DNA from: a virus | Taxonomy: Duplodnaviria > Heunggongvirae > Uroviricota > Caudoviricetes | Virus record (IMG/VR): IMGVR_UViG_2778261375_000004 | Reading direction: 5' to 3' (one strand) | Length of the DNA: 11,810 bases | In this document: positions 3,079-7,606 of the stretch, in pieces | Position numbering within the stretch: the stretch's first letter is position 1 | Layout of the letters: each line of letters begins with the position of its first letter | Made by a program: the position numbers and the translations under genes | Notes under the pieces: model-generated | What the model was told of the DNA's origin: nothing | The model's database searches: none | Seen by the model: only the letters and a program-made list of their open reading frames with translations

Positions 3079-3501
3079 TCACTTCAATAAATACCGAACA
3101 TCCCCCTGATAAAACGACAATATGCGCTGCATAACTTCGCTCTTCCGGCACTCGCGACAGATTATGTTTAGGCGACTGTCGTAGCGACGTATTTCTCCGT
3201 CAGGTAATGACCAGATAAGGTCCGGATCAACCACAACCGGTTTCTTCAGCTTTGCCCTCGATAATTTTTTGCGGGCATTTTGCCAGTCTTTACGAGCCTG
3301 TTCAGACGGGAATAACCCGTAGCCAGAATTGTATACATCGCCACTGGCAACCAGCTCTCTGGCCAGAACGCTCATCAGATATCTTGTTGCCCCAGTTTTA
3401 GCTTCCAGTTGTCGTAACGTCTCGCGCCCACTCTGGCGTACGAGTTCAAGAACCTGCCCTTTAATTTTTTCCCGCTCTTCTTGTGTAAAAACTTTTGCCA
3501 C
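3079..3501 (-). CDS. hypothetical prophage protein (140 aa), possible winged-helix DNA-binding segment
   Basis: GTG start at 3499-3501 preceded by a perfect AGGAGG Shine-Dalgarno 4 nt upstream on the minus strand. It is the last gene of the minus-strand replication operon. No family recognised; residues ETLRQLEAKTGATRYLMSVLAREL look HTH-like. Confidence 0.55.
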   Translation of the reverse strand: MAKVFTQEEREKIKGQVLELVRQSGRETLRQLEAKTGATRYLMSVLARELVASGDVYNSGYGLFPSEQARKDWQNARKKLSRAKLKKPVVVDPDLIWSLPDGEIRRYDSRLNIICRECRKSEVMQRILSFYQGDVRYLLK

Positions 3502-3541: not shown

Positions 3542-4612
3542 TTACCCCCTGAAGCCCGGCGGAATTTCGTTATCCGGTTCAGAAATATGATTCACACAAC
3601 GCTGGTTGTTCGTGCCGCTTACCGGGAGCAACCAGGGGTTCTCAAAATTCCGGTCCGGTCCAAAAAACGTCGTCGCTCGCTGAACAAATTCCGTTCCCGT
3701 TTTCCCGGTAGCCGCCAAGTATCTTGCGTAACGCCTCACGCCATCCAGCATGGCCTCTGGTGGCACCCCCTCGCGTAATCTGGCCTTCCAGGCACTGAAA
3801 GCGGATTTCTTCGGGTTTGCCCCAGCACGCAACGGGTACTCCCGCCAGACCTGTTCGAACACATCCGGATAATCCACTCGTCCCACAGACTGCCCGGTGT
3901 TTTCCGGGACTACCCGATCGGCTTCCCGCTGAATGGCGGAATCGGCTTCAGGCTGCTGCAGTTGGTGTGATTGCTCCGCCCTTGCGGTCATCACCTGCTG
4001 CACAGCGCCCGAATCGGCTTTCAGCGCATACGCTGAATCGGCTTCCGGTGTCGTGCCTGCTGGCTGACCAAGATTGACGGTCTGAACATCCCCTGCCTGG
4101 TTCGTGGCGTTTTTTACGCCATGGACCATAGTGTTTTGATCTTCTTGATCTGTATCTTTATCTGTATCTTTATCTGTCGTGACTCGTCGTGACATGTGCG
4201 TGACATTTCGTGACGCGCCGTGACAATCGCCATTTTGTTCCCGCTTTCTTTCCCTCTCTCGCTGCGCCCTCTTGCGCTCTGCAGGAGATTTTGCGGTTTG
4301 CGAAATATTGCCGTTGTCCTCTTTAAGCACCTGGCGTTTTTCCCATCCAGTGATTAAATCACCATCAAGTACCCGCCCCTGCATCGTCTGCAAAATTGAA
4401 TCAATTACCTCTTCTGTCACGTCGAGCGCACTTGCCAAATCTTCTGTCGTGACATCAATGTGACCTCGCGTGACATTTCGTGACGCGCTCACCAGGAGGT
4501 GGATATACACTGCCATCACTGTTGCAATTGGCTGCCCTGACACCCTGGCAATTGTTCGCCACTTAGGGTCATTTGGCATGTCATGCCATAATCTGAGCCA
4601 GGCGTTAGCCAT
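3542..4612 (-). CDS. Prophage replication initiator with DnaT-like C-terminal domain (YdaU-type)
   Basis: The C-terminus ...FGPDRNFENPWLLPVSGTNNQRCVNHISEPDNEIPPGFRG matches the C-terminal end of E. coli primosomal protein DnaT (...SEPDSQIPPGFRG) as recalled. Start taken as ATG 4610-4612 with AAGAGG 5 nt upstream; the track start GTG 4618 lies inside that RBS. Gene position corresponds to ydaU of Rac. Confidence 0.8.
   Translation of the reverse strand: MANAWLRLWHDMPNDPKWRTIARVSGQPIATVMAVYIHLLVSASRNVTRGHIDVTTEDLASALDVTEEVIDSILQTMQGRVLDGDLITGWEKRQVLKEDNGNISQTAKSPAERKRAQRERERKREQNGDCHGASRNVTHMSRRVTTDKDTDKDTDQEDQNTMVHGVKNATNQAGDVQTVNLGQPAGTTPEADSAYALKADSGAVQQVMTARAEQSHQLQQPEADSAIQREADRVVPENTGQSVGRVDYPDVFEQVWREYPLRAGANPKKSAFSAWKARLREGVPPEAMLDGVRRYARYLAATGKTGTEFVQRATTFFGPDRNFENPWLLPVSGTNNQRCVNHISEPDNEIPPGFRG
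4148..4224. repeat. Iteron-like array I: 12-bp AT-rich tandem repeat followed by five helically phased CGTGAC hexamers
   Basis: ATCTGTATCTTT at 4148-4159 and 4160-4171, partial third copy to 4183. CGTGAC at 4178, 4188, 4199, 4209, 4219 (spacing 10, 11, 10, 10 bp). Lies inside the replication-initiator CDS. Confidence 0.6.
4415..4487. repeat. Iteron-like array II: phased CGTGAC/TGTGAC hexamers plus one inverted copy
   Basis: GTCACG (inverted) at 4415-4420; CGTGAC at 4447, 4468, 4478 and TGTGAC at 4458 (spacing 11, 10, 10 bp). The 21-mer GCGTGACATTTCGTGACGCGC is identical at 4198-4218 and 4467-4487. Confidence 0.55.
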
Positions 4613-4683: not shown

Positions 4684-5109
4684 TCAATGCACAGCCACAA
4701 TATTTCCTGCAGGGCCACCACGATTCATCTGGTTGAAACCAGCGATCGCCACTGCGACAAAATCATCAGCGTCTCTCACCAGTCGTTCCCGCGTCTCCAC
4801 TAGTTCCCGAAAATAGGCTGAGCTATGGCTGCGCATTCGGGCCACCAGCAGAGGTGGCATTGCTTTTTCGATAGCTGGTAACAACGCCTGAATTTTTTCA
4901 ACTGCATCAGGGGTGTCTTTCTCTACCCAGCGGAAAATTTTCTGGGTATTGCGAGCCAGGGCTTCCGGATGGCTGTCGTCATACAGTTCTGGGAACGTCA
5001 TACCCAGTTCAAAATAAGCCCTGGTTATTTCAGCTGCCGGAACTTTTTCACCGTCCGGATGCGCCCAGGCATTCATCGCCATGCGGATGTGTTCATGCTT
5101 GATTTTCAT
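4684..5109 (-). CDS. YdaT-like protein (CII-analogue / formerly annotated toxin family)
   Basis: 141 aa, start ATG 5107-5109 with AGGAG 8 nt upstream. N-terminus MKIKHEHI... and position (between the Cro-like gene and the replication initiator) correspond to ydaT of Rac-type prophages as recalled. Confidence 0.6.
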   Translation of the reverse strand: MKIKHEHIRMAMNAWAHPDGEKVPAAEITRAYFELGMTFPELYDDSHPEALARNTQKIFRWVEKDTPDAVEKIQALLPAIEKAMPPLLVARMRSHSSAYFRELVETRERLVRDADDFVAVAIAGFNQMNRGGPAGNIVAVH

Positions 5110-5374
5110 GAATCAAGCTCCTAGAAAGTGGTTGTGTTAACATTTTGGTATCTTCCAGCTCGGGCCAAATATTCATCCAATCAAAAGGCCTTAGTTGCTG
5201 ACGTGTAACTTCACCATTACTGGCTCGCTCAATAAGGACACATAACGATGCCCCTAACACTTGACCTTTACTCAATGCCTTTCTTAGATAACCGATGCTG
5301 GTACCACACTCGCATGCAAACATACGCTGTTCATCTGACGAAAGAGAATTGAGAAATATTCTTAATTCTTCCAT
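5093..5374 (-). CDS. Cro-like HTH regulator (YdaS family)
   Basis: 93 aa, ATG 5372-5374 with AAGGAG 5 nt upstream. Transcribed divergently from the repressor. The segment ...ERASNGEVTRQQLRPFDW resembles the YdaS/Cro-like family as recalled. Overlaps the next gene by 17 bp. Confidence 0.65.
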   Translation of the reverse strand: MEELRIFLNSLSSDEQRMFACECGTSIGYLRKALSKGQVLGASLCVLIERASNGEVTRQQLRPFDWMNIWPELEDTKMLTQPLSRSLIHENQA

Positions 5375-5399
5375 AGCTACTCCTTAGTAAACACAGCAA

Positions 5400-5468
5400 A
5401 GAATACCCACAGGTAAACAAAAGTCAATACCCACAGGTTGTTTACCTTGCAGTAATCGCATCTATTAT
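5400..5468. promoter_or_regulatory. Immunity switch: divergent promoters with operator pair O1/O2 (TACC-N4-GGTA)
   Basis: O1 TACCCACAGGTA (5404-5415) and O2 TACCCACAGGTT (5428-5439), each within the direct repeat AATACCCACAGGT. Minus-strand promoter for the Cro-like gene: -35 TTGACT (plus-strand 5422-5427), 16-bp spacer, -10 TATTCT (5400-5405). Plus-strand promoter for the repressor: -35 TTTACC (5441-5446), 16-bp spacer, -10 TATTAT (5463-5468). Confidence 0.55.
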
Positions 5469-5474
5469 TTACCT

Positions 5475-5894
5475 ATGGACAAATATGAATTTAGACGACA
5501 GCAACTCATCAAAATTCGTGATGAGAAATGCGATGGTAAAGCGGTTAACGTGGCCAGAAAGATCGGGCGCGAGCCTTCTTATGTATCAAGAATGTTGTAC
5601 CCAGAGGGGAAAAAGGGAAAAAAACGGATCGCTGATGATATGGTGGAGATTATCGAAGAGTCCTTTGGGTTACCCCGGGGATGGATGGATGGTATCGTTT
5701 CATCATCAACGAACACAGCCTCCAGTTATGAAACAAGGGTTCTAACGCCACGACAACGTATTTTTTTAGATCTCTTAGACGAACTGCCAGAAAGTGAAGC
5801 GGATAACTTATTAAAAACTCTTGAAGAGAAAAAACAGTATTACAATATGATCTACGAAGAAATCCGTAAAAAGAAAGCACAAAACGCATCATAG
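5475..5894 (+). CDS. Prophage CI-type repressor (HTH, no peptidase S24 domain; DicA/RacR-like architecture)
   Basis: 139 aa; N-terminal HTH (GKAVNVARKIGREPSYVSRML); C-terminal region resembles the dimerisation region of DicA as recalled. Divergent from the Cro-like gene. No SD upstream of the ATG, consistent with a leaderless mRNA. Confidence 0.75.
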   Translation: MDKYEFRRQQLIKIRDEKCDGKAVNVARKIGREPSYVSRMLYPEGKKGKKRIADDMVEIIEESFGLPRGWMDGIVSSSTNTASSYETRVLTPRQRIFLDLLDELPESEADNLLKTLEEKKQYYNMIYEEIRKKKAQNAS

Positions 5895-5934
5895 CTCACC
5901 AAACAACTAGTCACCAGTTAAGACACCGCAAAAA

Positions 5935-5975
5935 GTTACCCATGGGTATTTACTTTTTAAATACCTATGGGTAAC
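5935..5975 (+). promoter_or_regulatory. Second operator pair O3/O4 (OL-like) at the start of the rightward early operon
   Basis: O3 TACCCATGGGTA (5937-5948, perfect 12-bp palindrome) and O4 TACCTATGGGTA (5962-5973), 25 bp centre to centre. Together they form a 41-bp near-palindrome GTTACCCATGGGTATTTA-N5-TAAATACCTATGGGTAAC. Same TACC-N4-GGTA consensus as O1/O2. Confidence 0.55.
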
Positions 5976-6159
5976 CTTCTTTTCATACCAACCCACCCCG
6001 CCCCACAGAATGCAGGGCAATACTTCGAGTTACCAGGCAGTGGTCAGGGGTTAAGTAGCCAGCCCGAGGCGTAAGAACATGACGGCAGGGTTCAACTTTA
6101 ATAACTATGCAGCAGGTTTTTGTTCCGCTACCCCGGCGTTAAGGGGAAATGAGGTCAGC

Positions 6160-6315
6160 ATGGATACTATCGATCTTGGCAACAGCGAATCTCTGGTATG
6201 TGGCGTGTTCCCCAACCAAGACGGTACGTTCACCGCGATGACGTATACCAAAAGCAAAACGTTTAAAACCGAAAATGGTGCCCGTCGCTGGCTGGAAAGA
6301 AACTCAGGTGAGTGA
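6160..6315 (+). CDS. ydfA: small prophage protein, YdfA-like (51 aa)
   Basis: ATG 6160 with GAGG 5 nt upstream; 51 aa (MDTIDLGNSESLVCGVFPNQDGTF...), first gene after the OL-like operators. Size and position match ydfA of the Qin dicB operon as recalled. The ORF-track start at 6079 gives a 27-aa N-terminal extension with a poorer RBS. Confidence 0.55.
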   Translation: MDTIDLGNSESLVCGVFPNQDGTFTAMTYTKSKTFKTENGARRWLERNSGE

Positions 6316-6316
6316 T

Positions 6317-6445
6317 ATGGATTTCGACACAATCATGGAAAAGGCTTACGAAGAATACTTCGAAGGTCTTGCCGAAGGCGAAGAAGCTCTCAGCTTCAAC
6401 GAATTTAAACAGGCGCTTTCCAGTTCGGCAAAATCTAACGGCTGA
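6317..6445 (+). CDS. ydfB: small acidic prophage protein, YdfB-like (42 aa); not in the ORF track (below size cutoff)
   Basis: ATG 6317 one base after the upstream stop (TGA-T-ATG), with AGGTGA 6 nt upstream. Translation MDFDTIMEKAYEEYFEGLAEGEEALSFNEFKQALSSSAKSNG, stop TGA 6443-6445. Size and position match ydfB. Confidence 0.55.
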   Translation: MDFDTIMEKAYEEYFEGLAEGEEALSFNEFKQALSSSAKSNG

Positions 6446-6474
6446 TAAGCGAAACAGCACCGCGAGGAATCAGT

Positions 6475-6690
6475 ATGCAGAAACGAGAACCCGTCATCAT
6501 CGCGCCAGACTATACCGATGATGAACTTTATGAGTGGATGCACCAGAAAATTAATGCAGCGCAGGATCTGAAATGGGCCAATGAAGCTAGGGCTAAGCAG
6601 GCTGAAAATCTGTCCGCTCTGGAGCAGGATATCACCAATCTGGAAAAAGCAGCAGCATTAAGCATTGCCAGAATGATTACAGGTTGGTAA
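6475..6690 (+). CDS. ydfC: small prophage protein, YdfC-like (71 aa)
   Basis: ATG 6475 with GAGGA 6 nt upstream; protein-like composition (MQKREPVIIAPDYTDDELYEWMHQKINAAQDLKW...). Position and size match ydfC. Confidence 0.6.
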   Translation: MQKREPVIIAPDYTDDELYEWMHQKINAAQDLKWANEARAKQAENLSALEQDITNLEKAAALSIARMITGW

Positions 6691-7002
6691 TAAAGGAGTT
6701 CTCCACGGGTGAGGTGGAGTGCGTGTGCCGGACACGGGTGAGCATCCGGCACTGACAGTTTACTGAAAGGATATTTCCCTGAAAAGTCAGACCATAACGC
6801 GAAAGCGCACGGCGAGGTAGCTGGTTCATAGATAGCCTGTCGTTAAATTTTCGTCGACCGTGCGCTTCCGGTTGTGGCAATCCGCGAAATGGCGCGGCGG
6901 TAAGTATGGCGGGGTTATTCCTTCCCCCGTTGAGGACACCGGGTTGTCAGGTTGACCATACGCTTAAGTGACAACCCCGCTGCAACGCCCTCTGTTATCA
7001 AT

Positions 7003-7060
7003 TTTCTGGTGACGTTTGGCGGTATCAGTTTTACTCCGTGACTGCTCTGCCGCCCTTTTT
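7003..7060 (+). ncRNA. dicF: DicF small regulatory RNA (cell-division/ftsZ-targeting sRNA of lambdoid prophages)
   Basis: TTTCTGGTGACGTTTGGCGGTATCAGTTTTACTCCGTGACTGCTCTGCCGCCCTTTTT matches the DicF sequence as I recall it. It ends in an intrinsic terminator (interrupted GGCGG...CCGCC stem plus T5 at 7056-7060) and sits between ydfC-like and dicB as in Qin. The 5' end is approximate (RNase-processed in vivo). Confidence 0.7.
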
Positions 7061-7229
7061 AAAGTGAATTTTGTGATGTGGTGAATGCGGCTGAGCGCAC
7101 GCGGAACAGTTAAAACCAAAAACAGTGTTATGGGTGGATTCTCTGTATCCGGCGTTAATTGTTAACTGGTTAACGTCACCTGGAGGCACCAGGCACCGCA
7201 TCACAAAATTCATTGTTGAGGACGCGATA

Positions 7230-7418
7230 ATGAAAACGTTATTACCAAACGTTAATACGTCTGAAGGTTGTTTTGAAATTGGTGTCACTATCAGTAACCC
7301 AGTATTTACTGAAGATGCCATTAACAAGAGAAAACAAGAACGGGAGCTATTAAATAAAATATGCATTGTTTCAATGCTGGCTCGTTTACGTCTGATGCCA
7401 AAAAGATGTGCACAATGA
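7230..7418 (+). CDS. dicB: Cell-division inhibitor DicB (62 aa)
   Basis: ATG 7230 with GAGGA 7 nt upstream. Translation MKTLLPNVNTSEGCFEIGVTISNPVFTEDAINKRKQERELLNKICIVSMLARLRLMPKRCAQ matches my recollection of E. coli DicB (62 aa). The ORF-track start at 7125 is an upstream extension without an RBS. Confidence 0.75.
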   Translation: MKTLLPNVNTSEGCFEIGVTISNPVFTEDAINKRKQERELLNKICIVSMLARLRLMPKRCAQ

Positions 7419-7606
7419 ATTCAGCATTTGCGCTTGTTCTGACAGTTTTTCTTGTTTCCGGAGAGCCAGTTGATATTGCAGTCAGTGTTCACAGGACAAT
7501 GCAGGAGTGTATGACTGCAGCAACCGAACAGAAAATTCCCGGTAACTGTTACCCGGTCGATAAAGTTATTCACCAGGATAATATCGAAATCCCGGCAGGT
7601 CTTTAA
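7415..7606 (+). CDS. ydfD: small membrane protein, YdfD-like (63 aa)
   Basis: ATG 7415 overlaps the dicB stop (ATGA, translational coupling). N-terminal hydrophobic helix MNSAFALVLTVFLVSG...; 63 aa, matching the size and position of ydfD (Qin lysis-associated protein). The track start at 7361 is less likely. Confidence 0.6.
   Translation: MNSAFALVLTVFLVSGEPVDIAVSVHRTMQECMTAATEQKIPGNCYPVDKVIHQDNIEIPAGL

Follow-up and report, generated by a model that had tools for sequence, protein, structure and literature searches.

The viral DNA considered here, IMG/VR record IMGVR_UViG_2778261375_000004, is a stretch of 11,810 nt that is referred to as a whole as the window, with its first letter as position 1. 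It carries a gene for a CI-type repressor of 139 amino acids (aa) that diverges from a cro-like gene of the YdaS family, and short palindromes of the form TACC-N4-GGTA are found on both sides of the repressor gene. Three of these (5404, 5428, and 5443) are crowded into the 100-bp region between the two genes, together with promoter-like elements on both strands, while two more follow the repressor gene. In the list below, they are named after the right (OR) and left (OL) operators of lambda, and the promoters after its rightward (PR), repressor-maintenance (PRM), and leftward (PL) promoters. The cro-side and repressor promoters were obtained with a promoter scan and the leftward one was read from the sequence together with the layout conserved in the family; all transcription starts are predicted.

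5475-5894, plus strand: CI-type repressor gene, 139 aa, with a helix-turn-helix at residues ~1-73, a disordered linker at 76-87, and a DicA-like helical tail at 89-139 (phrog_5736, E 4e-70).
5093-5374, minus strand: YdaS-family Cro-like gene, 93 aa, divergent from the repressor gene (phrog_35, E 1e-22; Pfam YdaS_toxin, E 9e-6, below the curated cut-off).
5404-5415, no strand assigned: site A, OR1-like, TACCCACAGGTA, an exact match in the spacer of the cro-side promoter, overlapping its -10 by 2 bp.
5428-5439, no strand assigned: site B, OR2-like, TACCCACAGGTT, one mismatch, abutting the cro-side -35.
5443-5454, no strand assigned: site C, OR3-like, TACCTTGCAGTA, one mismatch, overlapping the -35 of the repressor promoter (TTTACC).
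5937-5948, no strand assigned: upstream OL site, TACCCATGGGTA, exact, with the leftward-promoter -35 directly after it.
5962-5973, no strand assigned: downstream OL site, TACCTATGGGTA, exact, filling the spacer of the leftward promoter, its last two bases TA beginning the -10.
5400-5427, minus strand: predicted PR-like promoter of the cro-like gene, -35 TTGACT (5427-5422), 16-bp spacer, -10 TATTCT (5405-5400), start ~5393.
5441-5468, plus strand: predicted PRM-like promoter of the repressor gene, -35 TTTACC (5441-5446), 16-bp spacer, -10 TATTAT (5463-5468), start ~5475.
5949-5977, plus strand: predicted PL-like promoter, the counterpart of dicBp, -35 TTTACT (5949-5954), 17-bp spacer, -10 TAACCT (5972-5977), start ~5984-5985.

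Judged from sequence and placement, the five TACC-N4-GGTA sites are very probably the operators of a lambda-type immunity switch, most likely bound by dimers of the 139-aa repressor and, by analogy, by the YdaS-type Cro. A search of the window with the pattern TACCNNNNGGTA, repeated on 200 shuffles, gave three exact matches (5404, 5937, and 5962) where 0.10 were expected, and none of the shuffles reached three; with up to one mismatch allowed, eight matches were found against 2.2 expected, again a number that no shuffle reached. An earlier note, made from the letters of this DNA, had described four such sites as two pairs around the repressor gene, and all four are found in the sequence at the coordinates that it gave. 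The consensus that it assigned to all of them is exact at 5404, 5937, and 5962, whereas its second site (O2, here site B) is one mismatch off. The spacing of 24-25 bp claimed within each pair agrees with start-to-start distances of 24 bp from A to B and 25 bp in the OL pair, and the distance of about 530 bp between the pairs with the 533 bp from 5404 to 5937. Its count of two right-operator sites was too low, as OR has three; the one overlooked is site C, which begins 15 bp after site B. Relative to the repressor ATG, the five sites begin at -71, -47, -32, +462, and +487.

Two points may be added on the sites themselves. TTACCCATGGGTAA is a candidate DNA target for a repressor dimer. A further element, TACCTATGGACA at 5470-5481, overlaps the start codon of the repressor gene and matches the 5962 site over nine consecutive bases, with two mismatches to the motif; it is retained in L048, a close variant from E. 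coli, but not across the family at large.

Comparison across related loci strongly supports, at the level of sequence, a lambda-like arrangement in which these operators form an OR and an OL set on either side of a CI-type repressor gene. Forty loci encoding the DNA-binding domain of the repressor were collected, with one genome per species and 202.5 kb in total, from Enterobacterales, Aeromonas, Neisseria, Burkholderiales, Xanthomonadales, and others. They contain 112 exact matches to the motif where 3.1 were expected, and 108 of the 112 fall either at OR, 20-90 bp upstream of the start codon, or in the downstream pair. Site A is present in 36 of the 40 loci, sites B and C in 32 each, and the OL pair in 27, at offsets from the ATG that hardly move (A at -71 to -75, B at -47 to -50, C at -32 to -35) and with a spacing of 25-26 bp within the OL pair. 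TACC and GGTA are invariant across the loci, whereas N4 is variable with a pyrimidine-purine (YRYR) bias, so that the extended family consensus reads T-TACC-YRYR-GGTA-A. Site C is exact at its position in most related loci, while site B is always off consensus in its last one or two bases.

The same layout is met in phage mEp043, where TACCTGTAGGTA, TACCCATAGGTT, and TACCGGCAGGTA stand in the cro-cI region at -72, -47, and -32 from the cI start codon, and a left pair formed by TACCTATAGGTA and a second copy of TACCTGTAGGTA, 25 bp apart, coincides with an annotated putative PL at the same relative place as in the window. The motif search in related prophages that the earlier note had proposed has thus found TACC-N4-GGTA at the same offsets from the repressor start in about 36 of the 40 loci and in mEp043, and the lambda-like OR/OL geometry that it had read around the repressor gene is borne out by the shared motif and offsets and by conserved promoter elements. 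As a separate observation, five loci (L002 at 4553-4576, and also L010, L012, L015, and L021) carry ATTACCTGAAAnTTCAAnCAGGTAAAC, of the form TACC-N14-GGTA, about 43 bp upstream of the left pair; no such element was found upstream of the left pair in the window.

The promoter elements are conserved together with the sites. In the family alignment, TCAA, which is the cro-side -35 as seen on the plus strand, precedes site B, the cro-side -10 follows the pattern TAAnnT, and TTTACC overlaps site C. On the left side, TTGAC or TTTAC follows the upstream OL site, with TTGA in most of the 27 pairs, and TA+NNN+T occurs at the downstream OL site, where all 27 of 27 pairs have the final T. In effect, one unit, consisting of a site, a -35, 6-8 nt, and a second site overlapping the -10, occurs twice, as the cro-side and as the leftward promoter. 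The overlap that the earlier note had seen between its first two sites and the cro-side -10 and -35 stands in part: site A overlaps the -10 by the 2 bp listed above, whereas site B abuts the -35 instead. Its placement of O2 about 41-42 bp upstream of the repressor transcription start holds on the predicted start at 5475, from which the centre of site B (5433.5) is 41.5 bp distant. In most loci, the repressor -10 is found to end 6-7 nt before the start codon and a Shine-Dalgarno sequence is absent, for which reason the repressor transcript is expected to begin with the A of the ATG (5475), without a leader. The predicted start of the leftward promoter at ~5984-5985 coincides with position 5991, the point at which the match to phages of other immunity types sets in again. 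Taken with the embedded elements, this layout supports the view that the downstream pair serves as operator for the promoter of ydfABC-dicF-dicB, which corresponds to dicBp of K-12.

A switch built from these parts would work as follows. With repressor on sites A and B, which are 24 bp apart, the cro/ydaT promoter would be blocked, and from site B, centred at -41.5, the protein would be in a position to activate the repressor promoter, which is weak and leaderless. Site C overlaps the -35 of that promoter and could serve either negative autoregulation by excess repressor or a Cro-dependent shut-off. At the OL pair, the repressor would block the promoter from which ydfABC-dicF-dicB-ydfD, the exonuclease gene, xis, and int are transcribed, in the way of DicA at dicBp, and it is most likely what keeps the cell-division inhibitors of the prophage silent.

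Several points weigh against this scheme or parts of it. Activation from site B, cooperative binding, and looping over 533 bp are suggested by geometry, and the 25-bp spacing is one that the promoter layout also dictates. The OR-OL distance varies about five-fold across the family, from ~0.5 to 2.5 kb. Sites B and C may not be occupied together, since they lie 15 bp apart centre to centre. In the window itself, site C is degenerate, ending in AGTA (5451) where most near-identical copies have GGTA and hence the exact form TACCTTGCGGTA, and the -10 of the leftward promoter, TAACCT (5974), is weak, most near-identical copies, and all 80 of those from IMG/VR considered below, having TATCCT. A literature search for the motif and the site sequences returned only an unrelated primer match, and none of the papers mentioning mEp043 treats its operators. 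Finally, comparison of loci alone would separate the repressor from Cro as the reader of the sites only weakly: a homologous, divergent cro gene of the YdaS type is present in nearly all related loci, and the two candidate readers are confounded because both co-occur with the motif in most of them.

This co-occurrence is what speaks for an alternative in which the 139-aa repressor does not bind the sites and they are recognised solely by the YdaS-type Cro or by some other factor, for example YdaT. Four Klebsiella loci (L005, L008, L009, and L011) argue otherwise, as they encode the repressor without a cro-like gene, yet keep site A, site C, and the OL pair, so that the motif follows the repressor domain. 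YdaT, for its part, recognises a different motif in the E. coli prophage CP-933P, TTGATT-N6-AATCAA, and this is present in the window separately, at 5099-5116. In lambda, the repressor and Cro both bind shared operators. Shared operators are likewise bound by both proteins in Qin (PMC10448788) and in CP-933P (PMC8630535). The alternative accordingly appears quite unlikely, and by the same analogy Cro probably binds the sites that the repressor is proposed to bind. The four Klebsiella loci also show TTGCTATATTTT in place of site B and a terminator-like hairpin just upstream of site A.

The proposed main reader, the 139-aa repressor, is by sequence a chimera in which an uncharacterised CI-type helix-turn-helix domain is fused to a DicA-like tail. 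No Pfam family matches the protein. Full-length relatives of 135-139 aa occur in E. coli, Salmonella, Serratia, and Yersinia, and many further homologues of 221-242 aa, among them the cI of phage mEp043, are 65-80% identical over their first 74-86 residues and then continue into a LexA-like S24 peptidase domain (PF00717). Compared with 16 family members over 74 residues, the repressor is 66-85% identical, with 26 invariant columns, and it contains the N-terminal signature of the family, MDKYExRR...REPSYVSRMLYPEGKKGKKRIADDM...LPRGWMDG. Its last ~50 residues are shared with the CI of phage Tritos, whose DNA-binding domain differs, and the tail is 33% identical to DicA of K-12 over 46 residues (E 1e-7), BLASTP aligning residues 89-134 only. 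An S24 self-cleavage domain is absent, as indicated by the lack of a Pfam match and by the DicA-like tail that takes its place, and direct induction of the switch by RecA should for this reason not be expected.

The AlphaFold model of the repressor has a mean predicted local distance difference test (pLDDT) score of 86 and consists of a helix-turn-helix part (residues 3-63), the disordered linker (76-87), and a helix-turn-long-helix tail (92-138); Foldseek grouped the N-terminal part with domains of the lambda-repressor/XRE type. By sequence, no solved structure was matched significantly, the best E-values being 0.08 for the repressor alone and 0.3 for a profile of the domain. Homology to the antirepressor-controlled repressor of Salmonella phage SPC32H, the best structure match, was rejected as too weak (E 1e-3, template modelling score 0.47).

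Variation among close relatives was followed in 80 IMG/VR copies in which the repressor protein is 99-100% identical; a search of IMG/VR with the full protein returned only such copies, which are informative on polymorphism but not on independent covariation. Polymorphic positions make up 12 of 20 in the N4 cores but 2 of 40 in the half-sites, against 16 of 136 in the other non-coding positions and 13 of 420 in the repressor coding sequence. The contrast of the cores with the half-sites gives p = 6e-6, as does that with the other non-coding positions, values that describe a pattern and are no formal test because the 80 copies are related to one another. Since the cores are hypervariable while the half-sites barely vary, the pattern suggests that the N4 core may tune affinity or specificity without direct contact. 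The hypervariable cores lie at 5408-5411, 5432-5435, 5447-5450, 5941-5944, and 5966-5969.

The constancy of the half-sites also bears on the alternative that the sites are inert relics in a decayed prophage and regulate nothing at present. In favour of decay, the element is a ~9-kb remnant without structural and lysis genes, the alleles of site C and of the leftward -10 in the window are the weaker ones described above, and some E. coli strains have frameshifted repressor alleles (P0012 and P0018). Against this, the half-sites are nearly invariant among the 80 copies while N4 varies, the repressor frame is undamaged, with 99% identity to a cluster of 543 sequences, dicF and dicB, both toxic, are intact downstream, and repression of the equivalent promoter by DicA is functional in K-12 (PMC10448788). 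On these grounds, the relic explanation is considered very unlikely. The two frameshifted alleles begin with MNLDD..., which corresponds to the +1 frame of the repressor gene (5485-5745), and rejoin the normal frame later, so that the DNA-binding domain is destroyed and the tail is intact.

The downstream pair has a second property that has to be weighed, as it also forms a hairpin in the following interval.

5935-5975, plus strand: hairpin with an 18-bp stem and a 5-nt loop, formed from the two OL sites and the ATTTA/TAAAT between them and followed by CTTCTTTTCA (terminator scan).

Its folding energy is -26 kcal/mol (z = -7), and no other terminator was found between the stop codon of the repressor gene (5894) and the toxic dicB operon. 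The pair could therefore be thought of as mainly an intrinsic terminator hairpin whose likeness to the upstream sites is incidental. Loci in which the pair directly follows a short repressor gene (the window, L048-50, and L051) fit this idea, as their N4 cores are fully pairable and the hairpins reach -24 to -26 kcal/mol, most other loci giving -6 to -18 kcal/mol (with the exception of L052, -23.6 kcal/mol). In the closest lineages, moreover, the cores differ and yet pair (CATG/TATG, CACA/TGTG, and CGTG/CATG), full pairing of the cores being seen in 13% of between-locus combinations. However, the same spacing and the embedded -35 and -10 elements are retained in 27 of the 40 loci, where the hairpins are mostly weak; the U-tract is not conserved, with 4 T in L048 and 1 T in L051; near-identical copies have the outer stem pairs and several inner pairs broken; and the YRYR bias of N4 makes chance pairing of the cores likely. 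A terminator that resembles the operators by accident is thus extremely unlikely, and the downstream pair is preferred as an operator. The hairpin would be present in the repressor transcript only, as it lies upstream of the predicted PL start, and it is possible, if rather doubtful, that it acts as the 3′ terminator of that transcript in addition to its operator role.

Switches of the lambda type are well known, and the closest studied systems are DicA/DicC/dicBp of Qin and PaaR2/YdaS/YdaT of CP-933P. In lambda, a CI/Cro switch operates with OR1-3 and OL1-3. The window resembles it in its divergent repressor and cro genes, its three OR sites, the first two ~24 bp apart, the position of site B, which like OR2 is centred near -42 of a weak, leaderless repressor promoter, and a second set of operators beyond the repressor gene, at the early promoter for leftward transcription. 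It differs from lambda in a motif of 12-14 bp with a variable 4-bp core, in a distance of only 15 bp between B and C, in having two OL sites (no third was found in the window), in a repressor without an S24 domain, and in a Cro and a CII analogue that belong to other families.

For Qin of K-12, it has been reported that DicA represses dicBp, that deletion of dicA raises dicBp 22-fold, that the antirepressor Rem relieves the repression, and that three operators lie at each side (PMC10448788). The window and Qin share the chromosomal position next to rspAB and the ydfABC-dicF-dicB-ydfD operon. Both repressors are short, lack a self-cleavage domain, and have homologous C-terminal tails; in both systems, operators (predicted in the window) are placed on either side of the repressor gene, those downstream overlapping the promoter of the dicB operon. 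In contrast, the DNA-binding domain of the window repressor is unrelated to that of DicA, its Cro is of the YdaS type instead of DicC, and ydaT follows cro. The operators differ as well, the intergenic repeats of Qin in K-12 being of the TTAG...CTAA type instead of TACC-N4-GGTA, and the window has three OR and two OL sites as opposed to three at each side.

In CP-933P of E. coli O157:H7, PaaR2 and YdaS act at PRM, PR, and PL, paaR2 is leaderless, and the operator repeats have the consensus GTTTAGTAA and form OR1-3 and OL1-3 (PMC8630535), while YdaT has been footprinted on TTGATT-N6-AATCAA at the ydaS/ydaT junction (PMC9986795). The window likewise has a YdaS-family Cro followed by a YdaT with this motif, in exact form at 5099-5116, at the junction, a leaderless repressor gene (predicted in the window), and PRM, PR, and PL with shared operators. 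It is set apart by its operator motif and by its gene content, as no paaA2-parE2 genes lie between the repressor gene and ydfA. The operator motif, and probably the DNA-binding domain in each case, set the window apart from the lambda, Qin, and CP-933P systems. A switch of the RacR type, as in the Rac prophage, was ruled out, there being no similarity between RacR and the window repressor; Cro and YdaT of Rac are distantly related to those of the window.

The cI of mEp043 and the S24-type CI proteins of many Proteobacteria share with the window the DNA-binding domain, the motif, the OR offsets, and the OL pair. Unlike the window repressor, they carry a LexA-like self-cleavage domain, on account of which they should be inducible by DNA damage; mEp043 further differs in having a lambda-type cII and an N gene after PL. 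Tentatively, and with better odds against it than for it, a wider picture can be drawn from these relationships, in which a single code, T-TACC-YRYR-GGTA-A, would be read by one helix-turn-helix domain from E. coli to Neisseria and Xanthomonas, the C-terminal domain being swapped freely (S24 types or the DicA-type tail) and the OL pair doubling as a hairpin that ends the repressor transcript. If this were true, mEp043-type phages, incoming or co-resident, would have their operators bound by the uncleavable repressor of the window as well. The repressor would then confer an immunity that DNA damage cannot lift, with a possible dominant block on the induction of such phages, and finer specificity or affinity would be set by the hypervariable and probably uncontacted N4 core, as in phage 434.

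The general understanding of lambda-type switches is not changed by the findings in the window. What they offer is a sequence-level model, comprising sites, three promoters, and likely starts, for a common Qin immunity allele of E. coli that would keep DicB and DicF off, and a candidate operator motif for a widespread CI-type DNA-binding domain that has neither a Pfam family nor a solved structure. The motif should help to annotate immunity regions in many Proteobacteria, and the family provides a natural set of proteins that combine a single DNA-binding domain with tails that can or cannot be cleaved.

Turning to the surroundings of the switch, the segment 5050-6100 is 100% identical to several E. 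coli chromosomes, and at least 80% of it is found in at least 822 of 5,426 complete genomes. In strain ECCRA-119, the identical locus sits between a BCCT transporter gene and rspAB (RefSeq annotation). One strand there encodes a DUF977 gene, a replication protein gene, ydaT, and a gene annotated "transcriptional regulator", and the diverging set comprises a "hypothetical protein" gene, ydfA, ydfB, ydfC, dicB, ydfD, an exonuclease gene, xis, and int. DicF RNA is matched at 7004-7055 (Rfam, 76.7 bits). Given this gene order and the DicF match, the window holds a ~9-kb remnant of a lambda-like prophage at the Qin position of E. coli. The order of repressor, YdaS-like Cro, CII-like YdaT, replication protein, ydfABC-dicF-dicB, exonuclease, xis, and int is lambda-like. 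The remaining features are the following.

5122-5990, no strand assigned: immunity cassette (cro-like gene, five sites, three promoters, and repressor gene), the stretch that differs from phage Tritos.
4684-5109, minus strand: ydaT, gene of a CII-like regulator (PF06254, E 7e-10; phrog_163, E 9e-46).
5099-5116, no strand assigned: YdaT-type inverted repeat TTGATTTTCATGAATCAA, the sole exact match in the window, at the cro-like/ydaT junction.
6160-7606, plus strand: operon predicted to be controlled by the OL sites, with ydfA, ydfB, ydfC, DicF RNA (7004-7055), dicB (7230-7418), and ydfD (RefSeq annotation of the identical locus; Rfam for DicF).

The limits of the immunity cassette were drawn from a BLASTN comparison with Tritos, which is 96-97% identical up to 5121 and from 5991 onward; between 5122 and 5990, the match is confined to the part that encodes the repressor tail (76%). 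Everything that makes up the switch, from the five sites and three promoters to the cro-like and repressor genes, falls inside 5122-5990 and is therefore inherited as one cassette. Qin of K-12 matches the window only from 6122 onward, with 97% identity.

At its other end (741-2744 and 3079-3501), the prophage stops abruptly after the DUF977 (Ren-like) gene, beside the host BCCT transporter gene, and the whole late region is gone. The PHROG match of the BCCT transporter probably reflects a host gene swept into the prophage prediction. The YdaT of the window is 33% identical to that of Rac. The TTGATTTTCATGAATCAA repeat reaches from the end of the cro-like gene into the beginning of ydaT and is located where the immunity cassette has its left edge (5122). 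With 93 aa, the Cro-like protein is longer than most family members (~76 aa). Its additional C-terminal residues (region 5093-5130) run into the start of ydaT and arise where the immunity cassette joins the ydaT module.

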